Positions 1,021 through 14,716 of a stretch of DNA of 64,000 nt are shown piece by piece. Position 1 is the first letter of the stretch, and each line of letters starts with the position of its first letter. The translations under genes and the position numbers were made by a program. The notes under the pieces were generated by a model. That model ran no database searches, was not told the DNA's origin, and saw only the letters and a list, made by a program, of their open reading frames with translations. Origin of the DNA: Planctomycetota bacterium (lineage in GTDB: Bacteria > Planctomycetota > Phycisphaerae > Phycisphaerales > Phycisphaeraceae); NCBI GenBank assembly GCA_024279865.1, contig JAJRRC010000109.1:17513-81512 (forward strand). Direction: 5' to 3'.

Positions 1021-2217
1021 CTATTTCAGCGCCCGACCCAGTTGGCGGATTGCCTGGCGGATGCGGTGTTCATTTTCCACCAATGCCATGCGTACATAGC
1101 CTTCGCCCAATGCGCCAAAAGCAGCACCGGGGGTCATGGCGACTTCTGCCTCTTCCACCATCGCCATGCAGAAATCCTGTGAGCTATGGTTGTATCGGGC
1201 CAAATGCCTTGGGGCAACTTTAGCCCAGACGAACATGGTTCCATTGGGGGAACCGACATCCCAGCCCAATCGTCGCAAGCCTCGGACCATGACATCGCGA
1301 CGCTCTTGATAGATCAAGGCTTGTTTCTCGACGTGCTTGTCCCCTTCGCGCATGGCGAGGATGGCTGCGATCTGGACCGCTTGAAAAATGCCATAGTCGT
1401 AATAGCCCTTGAGCGTACCCAGTGCGTTGACCATCTCGGCATTGCCACAACAAAATCCGATACGCCAGCCAGCCATGTTGTAAGGCTTGCTCAGTGTGGT
1501 AAATTCCACGCCATACTCTTTGGCTCCAGCCACTTGGAGATAGCTGGGGGCTTTGTAGCCATCAAAACACGTTTCGCCATAAGCAAAATCGTGCATGATC
1601 ATGACTTGATGTTCTTGAGCCAAGGCCACGACCTTTTCAAAAAAAGCAGCGTCCACCGTCATGGTCGTTGGGTTGTGGGGGTAATTCAGGATCACCACCT
1701 TGGGCTTGGGAGTCAGATGCCTCAGCACATCCTCAACTCGTTTGAGAAACGCATCGTCATTGCCCAAAGGCACCGACACAGTACTCGCCCCTGCAAGAAT
1801 CACCGCATAGGTATGAATCTGAAAAGCAGGGTCTGCGACAATGGCAATATCCCCAGGCCCAAGCAAGGCCAAACACATATGGCTAAACCCTTCCTTGGAA
1901 CCAATGGTGGCAATCACCTCGGTCTGAGGGTCCAGTTCAACGCCCCATTTACGCTTGTATTTGTCAGCCATGTCCCGACGCAGATTGCTAATCCCTGCCG
2001 AGGCAGAGTAGCGACTGTTTCGTGGATCAAGCACCGCTTCACGAATTTTCTCAATCACCGCGTCCGGCGCAGCATCCTTGGGATTACCCATGTTCAGGTC
2101 TATGACATCACCGCCTGCCTGACGTCGTTCGTAAATCAACTGCTTGAGCTGACCAAGGACATAAGGGGGCAAACGGAGTAAACGATTCGCAGGTTCAATA
2201 TGCATCTCAAATACCAA
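1021..2217 (-). CDS. class I/II PLP-dependent aminotransferase (AlaA/DapL-like)
   Basis: 398-aa ORF with the motifs NYPHNPTT and SKPYNMAGWRIGF (PLP-lysine region). An alternative ATG lies at 2205. Confidence 0.85.
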   Translation of the reverse strand: MVFEMHIEPANRLLRLPPYVLGQLKQLIYERRQAGGDVIDLNMGNPKDAAPDAVIEKIREAVLDPRNSRYSASAGISNLRRDMADKYKRKWGVELDPQTEVIATIGSKEGFSHMCLALLGPGDIAIVADPAFQIHTYAVILAGASTVSVPLGNDDAFLKRVEDVLRHLTPKPKVVILNYPHNPTTMTVDAAFFEKVVALAQEHQVMIMHDFAYGETCFDGYKAPSYLQVAGAKEYGVEFTTLSKPYNMAGWRIGFCCGNAEMVNALGTLKGYYDYGIFQAVQIAAILAMREGDKHVEKQALIYQERRDVMVRGLRRLGWDVGSPNGTMFVWAKVAPRHLARYNHSSQDFCMAMVEEAEVAMTPGAAFGALGEGYVRMALVENEHRIRQAIRQLGRALK

Positions 2218-2388: not shown

Positions 2389-3990
2389 TCAGCACACTTC
2401 AAGCAAGTAATACGTCAGGGCATCGGTGATGGCTTGCCAGGAAGCATCCACGATATTTTCATTCACGCCCACGGTGCTGAAGTATTTGGGCTTTTCGTTG
2501 CCTCGGTCGGAAAACTGAGCCAATACCCGCACCTTGGCGGCCGATTCGGCAGTGGGATTCACCACGCGAACTTTGTAGTCACGCAAATGAACATGCTCAA
2601 TGGCAGGATAATGTTTGAGCAAGCATTGGCGTAATGCGCCGTCTAGGGCATTGACTGGGCCGTCACCTTCTGCGACACAATGCTCGATCTGGCCGTTGAC
2701 ATTGAGCTTGACGATTGCTTCGGTGATCGGGGGCTCACCATTTCGACGAAAAATTACACAACGATAATGTACCAGCTCCCAAAATTGCTTGCGGGTGTTC
2801 ATTGCTTCGTGCAATAACAATTCAAAGCTGGCCTCAGCCGCTTCAAATTCAAAGCCCTGATGTTCCATCTTCACCACGCGGGCGAGGACTTTTCGTTGCA
2901 ATTCTTTGTCGTCAGCAATGTTAAATTTCTCACCCAACGTCGCCACGATGTTACTCGCGCCTGAAAGCTCGCTGACTAGGATGCGACGGGTATTGCCCAC
3001 CGAGTCAGGCGTCACATGTTCATAGCTATGGGAAATCCGCTGAACTGCGTGAACGTGCATTCCGCCTTTGTGAGCAAAAGCGGCCGTCCCCACATAAGGT
3101 TGGCCTGAGGGGATGGATTGATTGGCCAATTCATAGACGTACCGGCTGATTTCAGTCAATCGGGCCAATGATCCATCTTGGAGACAGGTATAGCGATCAC
3201 CCATTTTCAATTGCAGGTTGGCTGCGATGGTGGTCAGGTCCGCGTTGCCGCAACGTTCACCGATGCCGTTGATGGTTCCTTGGACCTGGGCACAGCCCGC
3301 TTCCACAGCCGCGAGCGTATTCGCCACGGCCAAGCCTGCGTCATTATGCGTATGAACGCCTAGTTGGACTGCTTCCCCGAGTTTTTGTTGGATTGTTTTG
3401 GTCACGCGTAAGACCCATGAAGGCAAAGAACCCCCGTTGGTATCACAAAGGATCAGCCGGGTGGCCCCGCCTCCAATGGCAGCTTCAAGGGTTTGAATCG
3501 CATATTGGGGGTTCGCCCGATAGCCATCAAAGAAATGTTCTGCATCGTAGAATACTTCTGGCCCGGATTCTGCGCAAAAGCCCACCGAGTCACGAATCAT
3601 CGCCAAGTTTTCATCGCGTTCGACCCGCAGGACCTCGTCAACGTGCAAATCCCATGTTTTGCCGACAATGGTGATCACCGGAGCCTGGGACCCAACCAGA
3701 GCTTGCATACCCGCGTCTTCACGGGCATGAATCCCACGTCGTCGGGTCATGCCAAAGGCACAGACCTTGGCGTGCTGAAGGTCCAAGTCACGCACCTGTT
3801 CAAAATAGGCTTGATCCTTGGGATTCGAAAGAGGGTAGCCTCCTTCGATAAAATCCACGCCCAGAGCATCAAGACGACGGGTAATTTTGAGTTTATCGAC
3901 CAAAGACAGGGAAACTCCCTGCCCCTGCGTGCCGTCTCGGAGGGTCGTGTCGTAGATTTCTATGTGTCGTTTTTCTGTCTGTGGGGTCAT
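2389..3990 (-). CDS. cimA: (R)-citramalate synthase (LeuA-family, CimA type)
   Basis: IEIYDTTLRDGTQGQGVSLSLVDKLKITRRLDALGVDFIEGGYPLSNPKD is the CimA-type N-terminal signature, and a LeuA-like C-terminal regulatory domain is present. The start is set at ATG 3990 (MTPQTEKRH) because the TTG-extended ORF up to 4095 would run through an intrinsic terminator. Confidence 0.85.
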   Translation of the reverse strand: MTPQTEKRHIEIYDTTLRDGTQGQGVSLSLVDKLKITRRLDALGVDFIEGGYPLSNPKDQAYFEQVRDLDLQHAKVCAFGMTRRRGIHAREDAGMQALVGSQAPVITIVGKTWDLHVDEVLRVERDENLAMIRDSVGFCAESGPEVFYDAEHFFDGYRANPQYAIQTLEAAIGGGATRLILCDTNGGSLPSWVLRVTKTIQQKLGEAVQLGVHTHNDAGLAVANTLAAVEAGCAQVQGTINGIGERCGNADLTTIAANLQLKMGDRYTCLQDGSLARLTEISRYVYELANQSIPSGQPYVGTAAFAHKGGMHVHAVQRISHSYEHVTPDSVGNTRRILVSELSGASNIVATLGEKFNIADDKELQRKVLARVVKMEHQGFEFEAAEASFELLLHEAMNTRKQFWELVHYRCVIFRRNGEPPITEAIVKLNVNGQIEHCVAEGDGPVNALDGALRQCLLKHYPAIEHVHLRDYKVRVVNPTAESAAKVRVLAQFSDRGNEKPKYFSTVGVNENIVDASWQAITDALTYYLLEVC

Positions 3991-4003
3991 TCTTTTTTCC
4001 CAT

Positions 4004-4032
4004 AAAAAAAACCCTGCCTCTTGGCAGGGTTT
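4004..4032 (-). terminator. intrinsic terminator inside the cimA 5' leader (attenuator terminator)
   Basis: The minus strand reads aaa-ccctgcc-aaga-ggcaggg-tttttttt: a 7-bp GC stem, a 4-nt loop and eight T residues. It ends 13 nt before the cimA ATG. Confidence 0.75.
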
Positions 4033-4064
4033 GGCTTGATCGGTCTTAACTGACAACGCCATCC

Positions 4065-4130
4065 CTACCGCTTTGGCGGTGAAATCATAATCCAATGAAT
4101 CGCAGCAATCGCGTTAAGGGCAGTTGTCAT
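4065..4130 (-). CDS. putative Ile-rich leader peptide MTTALNAIAAIHWIMISPPKR
   Basis: This 21-codon ORF has four ATT Ile codons within nine residues. Its TAG stop lies inside the anti-terminator 5' arm. It is positioned as in classical ilv/trp attenuators. Confidence 0.5.
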   Translation of the reverse strand: MTTALNAIAAIHWIMISPPKR

Positions 4131-4138
4131 AGCGGCCT

Positions 4139-4166
4139 ATTGTATCGTTTGGCAACCGCGCAGCAA
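4139..4166 (-). promoter_or_regulatory. candidate sigma70-type promoter for the cimA leader
   Basis: The minus strand reads TTGCTG-N16-TACAAT. The -10 element ends 8 nt before the leader-peptide ATG, which would give a nearly leaderless leader mRNA. Confidence 0.25.
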
Positions 4167-4341
4167 GCAAGGTTTTGCAACCAAAGGCTAAAAACGGTAA
4201 AACTATGTGCCTCCAGACTGTGATTTGGAGGGTCTGTCTGTGCCTCTTTCCCGCTGCATGACCAAGTCATGTGCCGTCATGGATGACGGAAGGCCAGTCA
4301 GTTTTTTTGGCTTCCACTGAAATAAAAAAGTAGAGCGTCTT

Positions 4342-7300
4342 ATGCCCGTATCGACGGAAAATTTTTGGAATATCAAGAAACTTAACATTGCTTTTTTGCT
4401 CACTGCGGCATTGCTGTTCCTCGGCACGCAAATGTTTGTGGTCAAAGACTATTGGCGTAACTGGCGTACCTACCAACGCCAAGCCCGTGTCTGGAAAACA
4501 GCCATGACGCATGAAGCCATGCTCCTCGTGGACACACCCACGATGCATCGCAAGATTGCCGAGGTCCAAGCCCAAATTGAAAAACTGCAAAAAGAGTTGC
4601 CTCAGCAAGAACTCGCAGAGCTACAACGTCAAATTGATGAAGCTGTCAGTGAGCAAAACAAGCGGGCTCTCAAAATGGCGGTGGTCAAAGGCGAAATCGG
4701 CCCCAAGATTCAGATTCTCGAACGATCTGTTTTAAGCTTGGGCAAAGATCATCCGGACACGGTCAAAGTCCAAGTCGAGCTGGCAGCCATTCAAGCAAAC
4801 TATGATCAAAAGTTTGCTGCCATGTCGACCCTCACAATTCAGGTTGGTGAGCTGAGCAAAACACTACGTGACAAACAACTCGCCGTCACCAATACCCAAA
4901 AGAAACTTTCTGAGCTGACGGACCTCAAAGCAGTCCTCGTCGAAAAACTAGGCAAGTCCGATCCTCAAGGTCTGCACAAGATCGACGAAATCGCACGGAA
5001 CTTACCTCTTTTGGACTGGCTCAACCCCTCTGAAAAAGTACAACAAGTTGTGATTCCTGATGTGCTCAGCGATTATCACTTTGTGCAAATGGAAACCATT
5101 GACCGGTGTAATACCTGTCACGTCAACATTGCTGACCCCGCCTTTGAGCCAACGGCTCTGTTGAGCTTTGTCGAACGCCAGATTGCCGTCACCGAGGGAC
5201 AAGACATTGATCAGCTAGGCAATGTCAAGCCTGTGGTTCTCTTGGATTTCTGGTTACAAGCTGCCGAGCATGGCTCCCTCCAGCTCAGCAACGCGACCGA
5301 TGCCGTCGCCAAACAGGCCATGGGTCGACTCAACACCTTGCGTGAAGAAGCTGGGCTTGAAACCCTTGAGTCTGCTGAGCAAGTATTGGCCCAGTTGAAA
5401 AAGGGAATCACCAGCACGGTTGATTCCAAGCAATACGCCCAGACCCGCTACTACCTAGACGATCTCCAGGGTGCCATTGAAAAGGTGCTTGGAAAAACAG
5501 AATTTGGCAAGCTCAAAGATCTGTACCGCCAAACCGCCATCGCCCAATACAATGCTGCTCGCAGCGAACAAGGCCTCTCCCAAGTCAGCGCAGACCCGGT
5601 CCTGATGGGCCATCCCCGCATGGACTTGTTTGTGGAAGTTCAGTCCAAGCATCCCATCAACACCATGGGCTGTACCGTCTGTCATGAAGGGGCTGGACAG
5701 GAAACTGACTTTACCCATGCCACCCATACCCCACGCAACATGTGGGTCGATCAAGCGACAGGCACCCCGATCCCAGACCTGCTCGTCGGCGACCGTATCG
5801 GAACAGCCCACACCATCGCCAAAATGATCCGCGCCGGTGGAGAAGCTCAATCCCATGCGTCAGAAGGCGATCATGATAAAAGTCATGGCCAATACACCCA
5901 TGCGGACTTGAACCTCAACAACCCCGAAAACCCAGCTCCCTTTAGCCCAGTCCATGACCCCCATGGCAACACCGCAGCCTACCGAGACCCCACTTCAGGC
6001 GAACTTCGTCCTGCGGTGAAACAGGCAGACTTCTGGGGCAAAAAGCACAACTGGCATGAAGTCACCTACATGCACTGGGAAAAACCCATGCACTCACTGG
6101 ACTATGTCGAGTCTGGCTGCGCCCGTTGTCACACCAAGATTTTTGATATTCAAGACGCAGCCCCCAAACTCTTTGAAGGTCGCAAGCTCTTCGCCCAACT
6201 TGGCTGTGCCAATTGTCATGGCGTTGAAGATCTCAAAGAAGCCAAAGACACCAAGCAAGTAGGCCCAAGCCTCGTTCATGTCAAAAACAAACTCAGCTCT
6301 GAAATGATGGCCAGTTGGATATGGGCTCCCAAAGCCTTCCGACCCACCACCCGCATGCCTCACTACTTCATGCTTGAAAACAATGCCTCCTCCATCGACA
6401 TCCTGCGGACTCGCGTGGAAGTGGCCGCGATCACCCATTACCTTCAGTCCACCCCGACCGCCAAGGATGCTGCTCCGTACACGCCCCAGCAAGCTCCCGA
6501 GCAAACCGGCGATGTCGAAGCGGGCCGTCAACTGTTCAAAACCGTGGGTTGCATGTCCTGTCATGCCAACATGACCGAATTCGGCGATCAATGGATCCTC
6601 GAAGACCTCGCCACCAATCAAGGACTCTCCACCCCGCAGGCCAAAGAACGCCACCAAGCCATGTCCTACAACCAGAAGCACTGGTATGCCATGGAGCATC
6701 TAGAAGACAAGTTCTCCTTGGTGGGCCCCGAACTGTCCGGCGTAGGAACCAAGCTCAAAGCCGACCGCACCCCCGAAGAAGCCCGCGCCTGGCTGTTCGA
6801 CTGGTTACGCCATCCCAATCACTACTCCAGCTACACCATCATGCCTAGCTTCCGACTCGACGATGCTGAGGCCAATGATCTGGCTGCTTACTTGTTAACC
6901 CTTGAACGTCCGGGCTACAAAACCCAGGACTTCATGAAACTCGATGACCCCTCCAAACAAATGCTGCTCAAGCTCGTCTCAAGCCTCAAGGTCGGGCAAA
7001 TGACCATTGATGCTTCAGAAACGCTCGTCAGCGGGTCCATGAACGAACAAGAACAACTTGCCTACCTCGGCGGCAAGATGATCACCCACTACGGCTGTAA
7101 CGGCTGCCATGCAATCAACGGCTTTGAAGATGCCCCTTCAGCCTGTGCCAATCTCGATGGCTGGGGTGTCAAAGATCCGCATAAAATTGACTTTGGCTAC
7201 TTCGATCACGCCTTTGACAAACAGCGAACCAAGCCCCTCAGCATTCAAAAAGTTGACCACGAAGGACTCCAGGCCGATGCGCCGCAGATCACCGCCAACA

Positions 7301-9594
7301 GCGACAAAATCCATGAAATACTTGTGCAATGGGAACATTTGCCTGCCGCACGTCGACCTTGGCTGTACCAGAAATTGCACAACCCGCGTTTGTTTGATCG
7401 TGGCCGCACCTCCTACGATGGCAAGCAAGACGAGCAAGGCAAGCTCGATGTCGGCCGCCCTTACGACAAGCTGAAAATGCCGAAGTTCTTCCTCAAAGAT
7501 AGAGAGGCTGATGCCTTGGTGACCTATGTTACCAGTATCCGCCAGCCACTGGTCAGCCAGCGAATGCTCGATGCCACCTACTCCCCTGCCGCCAAACGTG
7601 CGGCAGAAGGACGGCAAATCGCCACGGTCTACAACTGCTACGGCTGCCACAACATCGAAGGCAATGACACCACCGTTGGCCAATTCTTTGACACGCATAA
7701 TCCAGATGGTTCATTCAAACAGGACAACCTCAACTGGGCTCCGCCTCGCCTCATTGGCCAAGGCTCTAAAACCCAGCCTGACTGGTTGTTTAGCTTTATG
7801 CAGAATGTTCAACCGATTCGACCTTGGCTGGAAATTCGTATGCCCAGCTTCCCACTTGATGGGCATGACGCTTCTGCCGTGGTCGATTACTTTTCCGGGT
7901 CCACGCAGTTGCTCGGTGAAGACCTCGCGCAAATTCTTAAACCCATTGACAAGTTCCGAGCCAATGCACCCCAGGCGCCTTGGTACGAAGTTCTTTCACT
8001 CACAAGCCCTGTCTCTAAACTACGAGACTTTGCCGTCACAGCGGACTTGACCACACAGGCCAGTCTTGACCCACGCACCACCGATGCCGACACGCTCAAG
8101 GAAAATTGGAATGCCATTTTAGCCAAGGTTCGTACCTTGACAAATGTGTATCAGACTTCCTATCCCTACACCGGTCACTACTGGCCTAAGAGCAATGAAA
8201 TGGAACTGGTTCGTGGTGAACGGCTCTTCACCCAGATGGGCTGCATGGCTGGTGCCTGTCATCGCATGGGCGACGAACAAATCCTCGGCGACGCGGGTCT
8301 GCTCGTCGGTCAACCCGTGGCTTCTGCTGACGACGACGAAGGCGATGATGACGGCTACGGCGACGACGATGAAGGCGATGACGACGGCTACGGCGATGAT
8401 GATGAAGACGGCGATGACAATTTTGCCATGGTCAGCATCGCTCCACAAAAAGCCCCAGAGGGCGCTCCCAACTTGATGCATGTCGCAGGTCGACTTCAGC
8501 ATCAATGGGTCCGTCAGTGGCTTGAGCATGCCGCCGCCATTCAGCCTGGCACCCGAATGCAGGAGTTCTGGCCTCACGGCGACTCCTTCTTCAAGCCTTT
8601 CCCCGCGGACATGCGCCAGCCCAAAGAAGCGATCTTCGGCCAGACCGGGCAGCAACAAAAAGACCTGATGCTTCAGTTCCTTTATTCTGCTGGCCCCAAG
8701 CGGATCACCTACAGCACCGATGGCTCACGACTGGGCCCGGGTAAAAGCAATGCTTCGAATATCAAACTTGAAGCCTTGAAAGTGACAGCACCCACATCCG
8801 ATGCCCCCGCGGCAAATCAGCCTGCTCCAGAAGAACCCAAAGCGGCTGTGATTGCAAAACCTCAAGCAGTCGCCCCCGTGGCTCCCAAGCCAGTGGTGCT
8901 CAAATCTGCCATTGAACTACACGACGGTTCAATCGCCACCGATACCCAAACCCGTATCGTGGGTGTGGTGAGTTATGAAGGTAAAAAATCGCGACGCAAG
9001 AAAATCCGTATGTCTGCCGACCCCATTTGTGCGAAATATCACAAAACAACTGGCATCATTCCCTTGCGTGAAGATTTCATCGTGAACAAAGATGGCTCCT
9101 TCACCAATGTCTTCATTCATGTGATCAAAGGCCCTGTCGGTTCACCAACGGTTCCCACCAAGCCCGCTGTCTTGGACCAAGTCGGCTGCGTCTACCATCC
9201 TCATGTGATGGGTGTCGTCGCTGGCCAACCCGTAAAAATTCTCAATAGTGACCCGACCTTGCACAATGTAAAGTTCACCAGCAAGAAAAATGGCAAGTTC
9301 AATGAAGGCATGCCCGTCAAAGGCATGGTCATCAACAAAGTGTTCAGTAAGCCTGAAATGAGCATGAAGCTCAAATGCGATGTTCATGCCTGGATGGGCG
9401 GAACCATCCATGTGGTGGACACCCCCTACTTTGCGGTAAGTGACGTGCAAGGACGCTTTGAAATCCGTGGCCTACCACCTGGCCAATACACCCTCAAAGC
9501 AGTGCATGAAAACAAACGAATCGCACCAGTTACATTTGATGTGACCGTCAAGCCACAAACCTCAATCCGGGCAGATATCACTCTCACACGATAA
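4342..9594 (+). CDS. membrane-anchored giant multihaem cytochrome c fused to a C-terminal cupredoxin plus CarboxypepD_reg-like module
   Basis: 1750 aa with an N-terminal TM helix and a coiled-coil region. Seven CxxCH motifs are present (CNTCH, CTVCH, CARCH, CANCH, CMSCH, CNGCH, CYGCH) plus one CMAGACH. RMP-type Met-ligand loops recur. The C-terminus carries LHNV...CDVHAWM, an amicyanin-like type-1 Cu ligand pattern. Confidence 0.85.
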   Translation: MPVSTENFWNIKKLNIAFLLTAALLFLGTQMFVVKDYWRNWRTYQRQARVWKTAMTHEAMLLVDTPTMHRKIAEVQAQIEKLQKELPQQELAELQRQIDEAVSEQNKRALKMAVVKGEIGPKIQILERSVLSLGKDHPDTVKVQVELAAIQANYDQKFAAMSTLTIQVGELSKTLRDKQLAVTNTQKKLSELTDLKAVLVEKLGKSDPQGLHKIDEIARNLPLLDWLNPSEKVQQVVIPDVLSDYHFVQMETIDRCNTCHVNIADPAFEPTALLSFVERQIAVTEGQDIDQLGNVKPVVLLDFWLQAAEHGSLQLSNATDAVAKQAMGRLNTLREEAGLETLESAEQVLAQLKKGITSTVDSKQYAQTRYYLDDLQGAIEKVLGKTEFGKLKDLYRQTAIAQYNAARSEQGLSQVSADPVLMGHPRMDLFVEVQSKHPINTMGCTVCHEGAGQETDFTHATHTPRNMWVDQATGTPIPDLLVGDRIGTAHTIAKMIRAGGEAQSHASEGDHDKSHGQYTHADLNLNNPENPAPFSPVHDPHGNTAAYRDPTSGELRPAVKQADFWGKKHNWHEVTYMHWEKPMHSLDYVESGCARCHTKIFDIQDAAPKLFEGRKLFAQLGCANCHGVEDLKEAKDTKQVGPSLVHVKNKLSSEMMASWIWAPKAFRPTTRMPHYFMLENNASSIDILRTRVEVAAITHYLQSTPTAKDAAPYTPQQAPEQTGDVEAGRQLFKTVGCMSCHANMTEFGDQWILEDLATNQGLSTPQAKERHQAMSYNQKHWYAMEHLEDKFSLVGPELSGVGTKLKADRTPEEARAWLFDWLRHPNHYSSYTIMPSFRLDDAEANDLAAYLLTLERPGYKTQDFMKLDDPSKQMLLKLVSSLKVGQMTIDASETLVSGSMNEQEQLAYLGGKMITHYGCNGCHAINGFEDAPSACANLDGWGVKDPHKIDFGYFDHAFDKQRTKPLSIQKVDHEGLQADAPQITANSDKIHEILVQWEHLPAARRPWLYQKLHNPRLFDRGRTSYDGKQDEQGKLDVGRPYDKLKMPKFFLKDREADALVTYVTSIRQPLVSQRMLDATYSPAAKRAAEGRQIATVYNCYGCHNIEGNDTTVGQFFDTHNPDGSFKQDNLNWAPPRLIGQGSKTQPDWLFSFMQNVQPIRPWLEIRMPSFPLDGHDASAVVDYFSGSTQLLGEDLAQILKPIDKFRANAPQAPWYEVLSLTSPVSKLRDFAVTADLTTQASLDPRTTDADTLKENWNAILAKVRTLTNVYQTSYPYTGHYWPKSNEMELVRGERLFTQMGCMAGACHRMGDEQILGDAGLLVGQPVASADDDEGDDDGYGDDDEGDDDGYGDDDEDGDDNFAMVSIAPQKAPEGAPNLMHVAGRLQHQWVRQWLEHAAAIQPGTRMQEFWPHGDSFFKPFPADMRQPKEAIFGQTGQQQKDLMLQFLYSAGPKRITYSTDGSRLGPGKSNASNIKLEALKVTAPTSDAPAANQPAPEEPKAAVIAKPQAVAPVAPKPVVLKSAIELHDGSIATDTQTRIVGVVSYEGKKSRRKKIRMSADPICAKYHKTTGIIPLREDFIVNKDGSFTNVFIHVIKGPVGSPTVPTKPAVLDQVGCVYHPHVMGVVAGQPVKILNSDPTLHNVKFTSKKNGKFNEGMPVKGMVINKVFSKPEMSMKLKCDVHAWMGGTIHVVDTPYFAVSDVQGRFEIRGLPPGQYTLKAVHENKRIAPVTFDVTVKPQTSIRADITLTR
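8329..8418 (+). repeat. in-frame 33-nt tandem repeat (about 2.7 units) encoding DDDEGDDDGYG
   Basis: gacgacgacgaaggcgatgatgacggctacggc repeats directly inside the cytochrome gene. Confidence 0.9.
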
Positions 9595-11809: not shown

Positions 11810-14716
11810 ATGAGCGACGCTGGACACCATCAAGAACCGACCAACTTCTGGCAGAAGTGGGTCTTTAGCACTGACCACAAAGTCATCGGCCTGCAATTTT
11901 TGTTTGCAGCGATCCTGTTCGTCCTGCTGGGCGGATCGATGGCCATTGCGGTTCGATATCAACTTGCCTGGCCTAGCCAGCATGTGCCTTACTATCAGAT
12001 ACTCCCTGGGGATATGACCAGTGAAGCGCCTGAAGCCAACGTGGCCCACTGGCATATTGGCGATGAAGTTCACTTCACCGCCTCGGTCCAAGGGTTGCCC
12101 ATTGGAACGGTCGCCACCATCACCGACTTCCCTCAAGGCGTTGCCGTCACCGTGCCAATCGGTACACATGTGCAAACTGCCGCCGGCCTAGTCAAAGTCG
12201 TCCGTGAAGACACCCACGCCACCGTGCCGATCTCACGCATCATGGGCGGCTACCAATATGCCCAGCAAAACGCCCTCGTCGGCCTCGGTCAACAGGTCAC
12301 ACTTGCTGATGGTGAAACATGGACCATCCTCGGCCATGAAATTCATGTCGCAACTGGAATCAACAGCGAACAGATCACCTTGAAAAAAGAACCTGTTCGT
12401 CTTCCCGTCCGAGCGGCTGACACCGTCGTGAGCATTGAAGTTCTCGATCAAGAGGTCGTCAATGACGACGGTGAATCTCAAGCCGTTCAAGGTCAAAGTA
12501 ACCTCGCCGTCAAAGCCACCGAAGTCACCGTCCTCAAAGAGGCCTTGACCACCGATGCCTATCTGCAACTGTTCACCATGCACGCCACGATCATGGTGTT
12601 CTTCGTATTGATGCCTGTGCTGTTGGGTGGGTTTGGGAACTTCTTAATTCCTTTGATGATTGGCGCTCGGGACATGGCGTTCCCCAAACTGAACATGCTT
12701 AGCTTTTGGATTTCTGTTCCTGCGAGTCTGATCATGCTACTGAGCTTCTGGGTGCTGCATGGCCCTGCTGGTGGTGGCTGGACAATGTATCCGCCGTTGT
12801 CAGGACTCGGTTTTATCAAGCCTGAACTGGGAACGACCTTGTGGCTTGTCTCCATTGCATTGGTGGGCTTTACCACGATTGTCGGCACCCTCAATTACAT
12901 CACCACCATTATCAACATGCGAGCCCCGGGCTTGGACATGTTCCGCTTGCCATTGACCGTCTGGTCCTTACTGGTCACCTCGGTGCTGGCCTTGTTTGCC
13001 ACGCCTGTGTTAACGGCTGCGGGCATCATGCTTCTCATGGACCGCACGATGGGAACGATGTTTTTCATTGCTGAAAAAGGTGGCCAACCGTTGCTGTGGC
13101 AACATCTGTTCTGGTTTTTTGGTCATCCTGAAGTGTACATTTTGATTTTGCCTCCGATGGGAATCACCAGTGACATTTTGGCCACGTTTTGCCGCAAGCC
13201 GATCTTTGGTTACAAGCCGATGGTCTTCGCCATGAGCGCGATTGCGGGTCTGGGCTTTATCGTCTGGGGACATCACATGTTCCAGTCAGGCATGAACCCC
13301 TTGTTGGGAACCACCTTCATGGCTGCCACGACCATGATCGCAGTCCCATCAGCCATTAAAACTTTTAACTGGCTCGGAACCATCTGGGGCGGCAACGTGA
13401 AATTCGAAGGACCCATGCTTTGGGCTCTTGGCTTTGTCAGCATGTTCGTCATCGGCGGTTTGTCTGGCATCTTCATGGCATCAGCCCCTGTGGACATCCA
13501 CATTCACGATACGTACTTCATCGTTGGCCATATCCATTACGTCTTCTTTGGTGGAACGATCATGGCGACCTTTGCGGGCGTTTACTACTGGTTCCCCAAA
13601 ATGTTCGGCACACAGCTCAACCAGAAATGGGTCAAAGCTCACTTCTGGATGACTCTCATCGGCCTTAACGGAACCTTCTTCCTGATGCACGTTCTAGGCG
13701 TTGCGGGTCATCCCCGTCGTTATGCCTCGATCATGGAATACCCCACGCTTGAACATTTGCAACCGATGAACGTCATCATGACGATCTGGGCGATTGCGTT
13801 GGGCATTGCACAATTACCCTTCTTTTTTAACCTCTTTGCATCGATGCCTCGGCGTGGCGGTCGTGCGGTGGCCTCTGTCTTTGTGGCCATGCTCGGCGGA
13901 ACCACCTTTGCCGGGCTGACCTACTGGAATAAATTCTCCGAAGCCCAGTCCGTACTCGGCAAACTGGCCTACGGCCTTGTCGGCTATGGAACCGACACCG
14001 GATTTAGCAATACCCAGGCATGGGTTGGCTACCTCATTCTTTTGATTGTCATGCTTTGGATCTTTGCCAGCATGGTTAAAGGCCTGGTCCCAGGCGGAAA
14101 AATTGCCACGGTCATCTGTGGTGGTCTCACCTTGGCGGGAACCCTTTACTTGATGAACAAGCGGATCACAGGCAAGCTTGCGGACCCTGATATCACTGAT
14201 ATTGTCACGCAAGCCTTGGCTGCGACGAGTGATCTTTGCATCAGCATGGGCTTTGCGTTTGTGTTCATGGCCTTGGGTGTGGCGTTGGTGTATCTCATTT
14301 GGGCCATTGGCGGTCGTTTGAAGATGGTGCGTGTTTTGAATATCGCGTTGCACATCTTCATGTTGCCGATGTTCTTGTCACCGCTGGTTCTCAAGCCTGA
14401 CCTGTGGATCATGCGTGGCATGACACAGATGCTGGACCTGCGTTGTCTGATTTTGGGTTTACTGTGTTTGCCTGGCTTGTTTTACTGGCTGATCAAACGA
14501 CCTGCCGACCAATTTGGTTATGAACCAGGGGACAACCCATGGAAGGCCAACAGCCTGGAATGGACGATTACGTCACCACCTCCGTTCATTAACTTTGAAG
14601 AAATCCCAACGGTCTACCGTGGCCCTTATGAATTCAGCAGTCCCGCTTCGGATGAAGATTACCTGACCCAGGTCACGGAATTGCCGCCAGGCGTTGTTGA
14701 ACCCAAGGGTCATTAG
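11810..14716 (+). CDS. ctaD: cytochrome c oxidase subunit I (A-type haem-copper oxidase) with two large insertions
   Basis: Canonical motifs are present: WFFGHPEVYILILP, GHHMF and HDTYFIVGHIHYVFFGG. The length is 968 aa versus about 530-560 aa for typical enzymes. Confidence 0.9.
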   Translation: MSDAGHHQEPTNFWQKWVFSTDHKVIGLQFLFAAILFVLLGGSMAIAVRYQLAWPSQHVPYYQILPGDMTSEAPEANVAHWHIGDEVHFTASVQGLPIGTVATITDFPQGVAVTVPIGTHVQTAAGLVKVVREDTHATVPISRIMGGYQYAQQNALVGLGQQVTLADGETWTILGHEIHVATGINSEQITLKKEPVRLPVRAADTVVSIEVLDQEVVNDDGESQAVQGQSNLAVKATEVTVLKEALTTDAYLQLFTMHATIMVFFVLMPVLLGGFGNFLIPLMIGARDMAFPKLNMLSFWISVPASLIMLLSFWVLHGPAGGGWTMYPPLSGLGFIKPELGTTLWLVSIALVGFTTIVGTLNYITTIINMRAPGLDMFRLPLTVWSLLVTSVLALFATPVLTAAGIMLLMDRTMGTMFFIAEKGGQPLLWQHLFWFFGHPEVYILILPPMGITSDILATFCRKPIFGYKPMVFAMSAIAGLGFIVWGHHMFQSGMNPLLGTTFMAATTMIAVPSAIKTFNWLGTIWGGNVKFEGPMLWALGFVSMFVIGGLSGIFMASAPVDIHIHDTYFIVGHIHYVFFGGTIMATFAGVYYWFPKMFGTQLNQKWVKAHFWMTLIGLNGTFFLMHVLGVAGHPRRYASIMEYPTLEHLQPMNVIMTIWAIALGIAQLPFFFNLFASMPRRGGRAVASVFVAMLGGTTFAGLTYWNKFSEAQSVLGKLAYGLVGYGTDTGFSNTQAWVGYLILLIVMLWIFASMVKGLVPGGKIATVICGGLTLAGTLYLMNKRITGKLADPDITDIVTQALAATSDLCISMGFAFVFMALGVALVYLIWAIGGRLKMVRVLNIALHIFMLPMFLSPLVLKPDLWIMRGMTQMLDLRCLILGLLCLPGLFYWLIKRPADQFGYEPGDNPWKANSLEWTITSPPPFINFEEIPTVYRGPYEFSSPASDEDYLTQVTELPPGVVEPKGH

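Follow-up and report, generated by a model that had tools for sequence, protein, structure and literature searches.

Transcription attenuation through alternative 1:2, 2:3 and 3:4 hairpins is a textbook mechanism, and the leaders of trp, ilvGMEDA (ilvL) and ilvBN (ivbL) in Escherichia coli and Salmonella display its parts: a short leader open reading frame (ORF) with a run of codons for the end-product amino acid, mutually exclusive 1:2, 2:3 and 3:4 hairpins, a terminator before the first structural gene, and a ribosome whose position decides between the structures. A likewise organised leader is present in the stretch of DNA analysed here (64,000 nucleotides from a planctomycete of the family Phycisphaeraceae, contig JAJRRC010000109.1; hereafter the window), where it precedes cimA, the gene for (R)-citramalate synthase, which is the first enzyme of the citramalate route to isoleucine. 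From the comparison of this leader with related loci we conclude that cimA is very probably controlled by an isoleucine-responsive, ribosome-mediated transcription attenuator.

The cimA element differs from the enterobacterial leaders in that it belongs to another phylum and has another target, the citramalate route. Whereas ilvL senses Ile, Leu and Val multivalently, the element in this clade is specific to Ile, and it has no sequence or covariance-model similarity to curated leader families. Its leader ORF lacks a Shine-Dalgarno sequence, its start probably coinciding with the 5' end of the RNA, and the leader stop codon is itself a paired triplet of the antiterminator. The untranslated state also differs from that of the trp leader, the cimA element being predicted to read through.

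The same two-state picture has been drawn for the ilvB1NC attenuator of Mycobacterium tuberculosis, a terminator/antiterminator switch in which a ribosome at the stop codon of the upstream ORF masks the antiterminator and stalling at branched-chain amino acid codons lets it form, with support from 3'-end sequencing and reporters (PMC13236596). That system differs in its target (ilvB1), its mixed codons (LVVI) and its actinobacterial host, it is not homologous in sequence, and its leader is not described as leaderless (PMC13236596). Leaderless polycysteine short ORFs of mycobacteria attenuate downstream biosynthetic genes (Canestrari et al. 2020, as cited in PMC13236596). They resemble the predicted form of the cimA leader in being leaderless and rich in codons for one amino acid, but they sense cysteine, and the leaderless status of the cimA leader is read from promoter geometry alone. 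The polycysteine ORFs are also said to act without a canonical intrinsic terminator. A leader-peptide attenuator before an aminoacyl-tRNA synthetase gene is known from E. coli pheST (pheM), which senses Phe in the gammaproteobacteria; it parallels the copies of our element found upstream of ileS (see below), except that the latter share both design and core sequence with the cimA copies. Finally, T-box leaders precede ileS and ilv-leu genes in Firmicutes and Actinobacteria, and leuA in Geobacter (PMC1262725; PMC2700814). Their output is the same, namely terminator read-through when the cognate tRNA is poorly charged, yet they bind uncharged tRNA directly and without translation, unlike the proposed cimA element.

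No Rfam family matched the window at gathering thresholds; the best sub-threshold match was to Phe_leader (26.1 bits against a gathering threshold of 55), a permissive scan returned generic leader and small RNA matches only, and the T-box model gave no match between positions 3900 and 4400 even at E-values up to 10. Within the limits of the literature searched, we found no description of a cimA leader peptide or of a planctomycete attenuator, nor any report of an ileS leader-peptide attenuator or element, and a search on leaderless transcripts in Planctomycetes gave no description of the element. Within the same limits, these searches are consistent with the view taken in a first-pass annotation, made from the window's letters, that attenuation of this gene is undocumented. 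What sets the element apart is its targets (cimA and ileS), its phylum, its probable leaderless start, and a stop codon that is paired within the switch.

Architecture of the cimA leader

All elements of the leader lie on the minus strand (Table 1), and a re-reading of that strand confirmed the positions that the first-pass annotation had assigned to the leader ORF, its Ile codons, regions 2 and 3 and the terminator. The ORF begins with ATG at 4130-4128 and ends with TAG at 4067-4065, and its four ATT Ile codons (4109-4107, 4100-4098, 4091-4089 and 4085-4083) all fall within nine residues. The TAG sits within GGUAGGG, which is complementary to the 5' arm of the terminator, CCCUGCC, and the last 7 nucleotides (nt) of region 3 double as that arm. 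Helix 2:3, the antiterminator, comprises 7 + 4 base pairs (bp) with a computed energy of -17.8 kcal/mol; the terminator, whose 7-bp core (CCCUGCC-AAGA-GGCAGGG) occupies 4029-4012 and is followed by T8 at 4011-4004, has a computed energy of -14.5 kcal/mol as 7 bp and -17.5 kcal/mol as 10 bp. The T run ends 13 nt short of the cimA ATG (3990), and the terminator hairpin does not sequester the cimA start region.

The 1:2 structure had been described less completely. Hairpin 1 is present where the first-pass annotation placed it, as ACCGC-CAAA-GCGGU at 4080-4067, but that description covers the core only, and the extended form (4085-4061) has 10 bp and one bulge, with a 5' arm that starts at the last Ile codon and a 3' arm that includes the stop codon. 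A second 1:2 stem, which had been left out, encloses the Ile codons by pairing GACAAC.GCC (4128-4119) with GGCGUUGUC (4060-4052). Helix 1:2 is thermodynamically weaker than helix 2:3 (-10.1 against -17.8 kcal/mol in the window).

Taken by itself, the evidence from the window is moderately above chance and no more. The leader folds with a z-score of -2.35, and 3 of 200 shuffled sequences fold as well; fold z-scores for the leader ORF region alone were mostly unremarkable. At least four Ile in 10 residues are reached by 9 of the 873 ATG mini-ORFs of the window. The cimA leader terminator is the strongest in the 64 kb, and a scan of the window found no second leader-plus-terminator design. The question is decided by the conservation and covariation seen across related loci.

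Table 1 Features of the proposed cimA attenuator in the window, and ileS-linked copies of the element
Feature	Position	Strand	Basis
cimA, (R)-citramalate synthase, 533 aa (putatively regulated gene)	2389..3990	minus	TIGR00977, 626.9 bits against a cutoff of 450
Leader ORF, 21 codons + TAG, encodes MTTALNAIAAIHWIMISPPKR	4065..4130	minus	Read from sequence; Ile-run mini-ORFs kept upstream of cimA
Hairpin 1 (1b:2), AUUUCACCGC-CAAA-GCGGU-A-GGGAU	4061..4085	minus	Minimum free energy (MFE) structure; -10.1 kcal/mol
Region 1a, GACAACUGCC, 5' strand of enclosing stem	4119..4128	minus	MFE structure; equivalent stem in relatives
3' strand of enclosing stem, GGCGUUGUC, overlapping the 3' end of region 2	4052..4060	minus	MFE structure; enclosing-stem test in relatives
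Region 2, GGUAGGGAUGGC, antiterminator 5' strand, contains UAG stop	4058..4069	minus	Complementary to region 3
Region 3, GCCAAACCCUGCC, antiterminator 3' strand	4023..4035	minus	Complementarity, folding, covariation
Intrinsic terminator, AAACCCUGCC-AAGA-GGCAGGGUUU then U8	4004..4032	minus	Consensus scan: 10 pairs, 6 G-C
Predicted -35 hexamer, TTGCTG	4161..4166	minus	Sole TTGnnn-N15-19-TAnnnT match on the minus strand of 3950-4345
Predicted -10 hexamer, TACAAT	4139..4144	minus	Ends 8 nt before the leader ATG
ileS-linked copies	L082, L084, L086, L089, L098, L099, L105, L107, L121, L124, L127		
Leader of L098	4128-4237 (L098)		
ileS of L098	4270-7071 (L098)		

Isoleucine leaders upstream of cimA in Planctomycetota

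Our comparison covers 80 orthologous cimA loci from Phycisphaerae, Tepidisphaerales, Planctomycetia and Brocadiia, in which the proteins align from residues 1-10; the closest matches to the CimA protein of the window come from Phycisphaerae metagenome-assembled genomes (MAGs), at 70-75% identity. Ile enrichment was counted in mini-ORFs within 450 nt upstream of cimA, in 79 regions. A mini-ORF with at least four Ile in 10 residues occurs in 31 of these regions, where shuffles give 2.4 and the opposite strand gives 7, and one with at least five in 19 regions (0.2 in shuffles and 1 on the opposite strand); a comparable excess is absent from the same 79 regions for every other amino acid. The Ile-rich ORF, which the first-pass annotation had proposed to look for in related genomes, is thus present in cimA leaders from across the phylum, with peptides such as MTTANASIIAIAIIITYPM, MLNSTPIIIESIIITSPPTR and MFFATSIIAISIIIGTGKA.

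In 28 loci the Ile leader is followed by a terminator, the stop codon lying 22-42 nt before the terminator arm in almost all, and some 20 further cimA loci have a like layout with mixed Ile/Val leaders. What the leader peptides keep is the Ile run and the segments involved in RNA pairing; their length and the remainder of their sequence vary freely. The distance from the leader stop to the cimA ATG is 74 nt in the window and 60-290 nt in orthologs, in some of which the terminator stands 100-240 nt before cimA.

The leaders also differ from the genes that they precede in their choice of Ile codon. They contain 91 ATT, 53 ATC and 5 ATA codons (61% ATT), whereas the adjacent cimA genes contain 148 ATT, 534 ATC and 14 ATA (77% ATC; Fisher p = 1e-20). 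A preference for the rarer, wobble-read ATT fits a sensor tuned for sensitivity; an alternative explanation is selection for weak structure.

Several Gemmataceae leaders (L045, L047, L058, L064 and L067, with a variant in L065) have in common an internal hairpin, GCGCA-GGGAG-UGCGC, which encodes AQGVR and lies between Ile/Val-rich segments upstream of cimA. This hairpin may be a lineage-specific pause or 1:2 element.

Conservation and covariation of the helices

Strand 2 is complementary to the terminator 5' arm in 24 of the 28 loci. In most loci the leader stop falls within strand 2, and in nearly all it is found either there or no more than 10 nt ahead of that strand. Moreover, the stop region and the terminator arm change together between loci, GG-UAG-GG being matched with CCCUGCC, CC-UGA-GG with CCUCAGG, G-UAG-GGC with GCCCUAC, and GCCU-UAG-GGC with GCCCUGAGGC, and a permutation test on the 23 nt centred on the stop codon gave a Fisher p of 4e-13.

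Covariation was counted on the 28 sequences after anchoring them at two landmarks that are independent of pairing, the stop codon and the point where the terminator 5' arm has its 3' end. In this anchored alignment 71.4% of cells are paired, against 58.1% in shuffles, and the covariation score is 0.40, against 0.22 in shuffles and 0.10-0.20 with the partner slid; neither value was reached in any of 500 shuffles. Both sides have changed in 7 of the 8 pairs of helix 2:3, including those formed by stop-codon positions 2 (A-U to G-C) and 3 (G-C to A-U). The alternative pairing that the first-pass annotation had drawn for the window is therefore found in orthologous leaders, where it covaries with the terminator arm. 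A MAFFT alignment of all classes (A1), in which strand 2 of the TAG and TGA classes was out of register, was not used for counting.

A further test concerns the flanks of the helix in copies recovered from metagenomes (see below). Pairing between the base 5' of GGUAGGG and the one 3' of CCCUGCC occurs in 46 of 50 unique metagenome sequences, where 35.4 were expected (G-C 39, C-G 4, U-A 2, G-U 1), and the latter partner is a base of the terminator loop that is paired inside the terminator in only 4 of the 50. Because the flanking pairs exceed expectation while their partner is unpaired within the terminator, these comparisons indicate that helix 2:3 is selected for in its own right. In a MAFFT alignment of 50 full leaders, 38 rows of which had helix cores fixed by the search pattern, a 9-bp helix 2:3 is 96% paired, against 33-60% in slid controls. 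The RNAalifold consensus on 50 leaders contains the terminator only, as expected of mutually exclusive helices, and the region between the helices is not conserved.

Both 1:2 structures have counterparts in relatives. Hairpin 1 of the window is homologous to a CCCG...CGGG hairpin directly before the stop codon, the 3' arm of which overlaps strand 2; on an alignment of 50 leaders (A3) it is 71.2% paired against 63.1%, with a covariation score of 0.27 against 0.17 that none of 500 shuffles reached and with double changes in 5 of 6 pairs. The enclosing stem links the start of the Ile run to the sequence right after the stop codon, as in the pairing of ATCGGCC with GGCCGAT. It has a median of 7 bp and attains p < 0.05 in 18 of 78 leaders (Fisher p = 2e-7), and its signal on A3 is modest, with a covariation score of 0.23 against 0.19 that was reached by 6 of 500 shuffles.

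Copies of the element upstream of ileS

A metagenome scan for the attenuator core, using the pattern GGTAGGG-N18-45-CCCTGCC-N3-8-GGCAGGGTTTT, returned 54 loci. Almost all copies with enough upstream sequence have a leader, such as MRKTATIIGRIIITPRNPG, in which an Ile run is in frame with the TAG. The downstream gene is cimA in 36 copies and ileS in 11, with 5 copies at a contig end and 2 before another gene; the identity of ileS is shown for L098 (TIGR00392, 871 bits), and the cimA genes on these metagenome contigs share 72-83% identity with loci from Tepidisphaeraceae and Phycisphaerae MAGs. The occurrence of one Ile-codon leader before two genes that share only their link to isoleucine provides independent evidence of Ile sensing. 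It points to a candidate Ile regulon that takes in at least cimA and ileS. No ileS gene was located in the 64-kb window.

Among the ileS loci from L086 to L127, a conserved sequence TTTGCTAMACT, which resembles an extended -10 element (TGnTAnACT), occurs 10-20 nt before the ileS ATG (at about 4240-4269 in L098). This motif may act as a second promoter, a constitutive one, from which a leaderless ileS mRNA would arise and this essential gene would be expressed at a basal level. Of the copies before other genes, one (L095, the leader of which is cut off upstream) precedes a small CrcB-like membrane protein, and another (L120) precedes a 234-aa protein and has a leader that is not clearly Ile-rich. 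In L100 a leader ending ...IIIIPPEQRG precedes a gene about 28% identical to cimA over 435 aa, which represents either a divergent LeuA/CimA-family paralogue or the product of an error-rich contig.

Predicted promoter and probable leaderless start

The predicted promoter of the window has a spacer of 16 nt between TTGCTG (4166-4161) and TACAAT (4144-4139), with a predicted transcription start at about 4133-4130. A strict promoter scan missed this site, as TTGCTG matches TTGACA at 3 of 6 positions, and it was recovered by a relaxed scan together with comparison to orthologs, which have TTGCC or TTGACC at the -35 position with equal spacing. No promoter-like TTGnnn-N15-19-TAnnnT site was found in silico in the window's intergenic region between the leader ORF or terminator and cimA, where the model of the first-pass annotation allows none.

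The position of the promoter relative to the leader is itself recurrent. A TANNNT hexamer whose end is 6-10 nt from the leader ATG stands upstream in 14 of 31 genome leaders (the other 6-nt offset bins hold 0-5) and in 35 of 45 unique metagenome leaders, 33 of these 35 also having a TTGnnn -35 element, mostly TTGACC or TTGACG, at a spacing of 16-17 nt. Judging only from this geometry, transcription probably begins at the leader AUG or no more than about 3 nt away from it. With a -10 hexamer so close to the AUG, translation of the leader ORF probably takes place on a leaderless or nearly leaderless RNA.

Proposed mechanism and alternative explanations

Under ribosome-mediated attenuation, a sigma-70-type promoter (TTGCTG, 16 nt, TACAAT) would start transcription at or near the leader AUG. 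When Ile-tRNA is plentiful, the ribosome would run to the UAG inside region 2 (GGUAGGG) and cover that region, leaving region 3 (CCCUGCC) free to pair with region 4 (GGCAGGG), and the resulting terminator and U8 would halt RNA polymerase 13 nt short of cimA. If the ribosome instead stalls at the Ile codons, it would open both the enclosing stem and hairpin 1's 5' arm and leave region 2 exposed. Region 2 would then pair with region 3 (7+4 bp, -17.8 kcal/mol), the terminator would not form, and cimA would be transcribed. We infer termination, stalling and leaderless initiation by analogy with the trp/ilv paradigm, which likewise suggests that hairpin 1 would serve as a pause or anti-antiterminator element.

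This logic was examined by constrained folding, for three ribosome positions, of the RNA made before the 3' arm of the terminator emerges. When the RNA was masked to 11 nt past the last Ile codon, corresponding to a stall, region 3 paired with the stop-codon strand in most loci, and with the mask extended to 11 nt beyond the stop codon, region 3 was free. Helix 2:3 still formed in most loci with no ribosome present, and the off state therefore depends on the ribosome reaching the stop codon. The first-pass annotation had proposed that a ribosome at the Ile codons favours the antiterminator and one at the TAG favours termination, which the folding of these ribosome positions reproduces; its interpretation of the locus as an attenuator gains further support from the conservation of the elements in orthologous cimA leaders and the covariation of the helices. 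The sequence features by which leader-peptide attenuators are recognised are found here, namely an Ile-codon cluster, an intrinsic terminator, an exclusive antiterminator, a competing 1:2 helix, a stop codon placed to block the antiterminator, and a promoter detected in silico only upstream.

Several observations weigh against this interpretation. Approximately 40% of the 80 cimA loci have no recognisable leader and terminator, some of these being on truncated contigs. The leader of the window is a weak example, with four interspersed Ile codons and a composition that about 1% of the window's mini-ORFs match, and its own ATT preference is not significant (genes of the window have 110 ATT and 144 ATC). 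For the metagenome copies the search pattern itself dictated the 7-bp helix cores, which leaves only the flanks informative there. The leader AUG has no Shine-Dalgarno sequence. Furthermore, the predicted default of the untranslated RNA is read-through, which makes repression wholly dependent on tight coupling.

Alternative hypotheses can be set against attenuation by a translating ribosome. Given that the unit has its own promoter and terminator, the mini-ORF could constitute a separate small gene, for a micropeptide or a small RNA, with cimA expressed from a promoter of its own, for which the 100-240 nt between terminator and cimA in some orthologs would leave room; the conserved extended -10-like motif after the terminator at ileS loci points the same way. 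We consider this very improbable, since the peptides keep nothing but the Ile run and the RNA-pairing segments, the 13 nt between the T run and the cimA ATG in the window hold no promoter-like motif, and the element faces and adjoins cimA or ileS in 47 of 54 copies (5 being at a contig end and 2 before other genes). A separate gene also leaves the covariation between stop region and terminator arm unexplained. It is similarly hard to credit that the switch is real but answers to something else than a stalled ribosome, such as uncharged tRNA, a small ligand or a protein, and that the ORF is incidental. The helices are indeed conserved on their own, and the link between switch and translation is a comparative one, yet Ile codons are enriched some 10- to 100-fold in the correct frame and strand only, with a strong ATT bias, the stop lies in or just before strand 2 in nearly all loci, and the promoter is positioned on the leader AUG. 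Nor is there any match to a T-box or riboswitch family, and the lack of conservation between the helices leaves no candidate aptamer.

Short leader genes near structural genes have been proposed to boost translation through reinitiation, in Planctomycetes among others (PMC4833913), and the terminator of the window is very near the cimA start, which would suit a leader that acts chiefly through translation or Rho (reinitiation or polarity) instead of intrinsic termination. However, reinitiation peaks at 10-16 nt between leader stop and gene start (PMC4833913), far below the 74 nt of the window and the 60-290 nt of orthologs. Conservation also extends to a canonical G+C-rich hairpin and its U run, and that hairpin leaves the cimA start region unsequestered, which together make this reading highly unlikely. 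Lastly, about 1% of the window's mini-ORFs have 4 Ile in 10 residues and the fold z-score is only -2.35, values that a chance coincidence in the window might produce; that reading is effectively refuted by more than 80 independent sequences, which show conservation, covariation and a recurrence of the element ahead of two Ile-related genes.

Neighbouring genes

A class I/II aminotransferase gene (1021-2205, minus strand), the product of which resembles alanine transaminase or LL-diaminopimelate (LL-DAP) aminotransferase, lies 183 nt downstream of cimA on the same strand. A terminator scan of the window found none between the two genes, and the aminotransferase gene may therefore be cotranscribed and coregulated with cimA. 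Divergent from the cimA leader is a gene (4342-9594, plus strand) for a 1750-aa protein that contains an acidic DDDEGDDDGYGDDDE repeat and numerous CxxCH haem-binding motifs, and further along (11810-14716, plus strand) is one for a 968-aa protein resembling cytochrome oxidase subunit I, with a large insertion near its N-terminus.

Implications for Planctomycetota

To our knowledge, Planctomycetota have few genetic tools and almost no known gene regulation. As far as we have found, the cimA element would be the first amino-acid-sensing RNA regulator described in the phylum, as well as the first attenuator described for citramalate synthase. The wider proposition of a phylum-wide Ile regulon, comprising at least cimA and ileS and operated by leaderless attenuators with the stop codon paired in the antiterminator, is one for which, on these sequence comparisons, we regard the case as evenly balanced. 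The link between cimA and ileS speaks for a role of the TIGR00977-type enzyme in isoleucine synthesis in these organisms, and the promoter geometry would predict that leaderless translation is routine in Planctomycetota. Additionally, the element family is defined well enough for an Rfam entry and for use in genome annotation.

A switch of this kind works only if a ribosome follows closely behind RNA polymerase, and the attenuator layout is also present in Gemmataceae loci (L064, L065 and L067). That transcription and translation are spatially separated has been proposed for Planctomycetota (Gottshall et al. 2014, as cited in PMC5394234). Since attenuation needs coupling, the element provides a testable handle on that separation: if our interpretation is true, a switch conserved in Gemmataceae among others would argue for coupled transcription and translation despite the proposed separation, and would offer a natural reporter for this disputed feature of compartmentalised planctomycetes.

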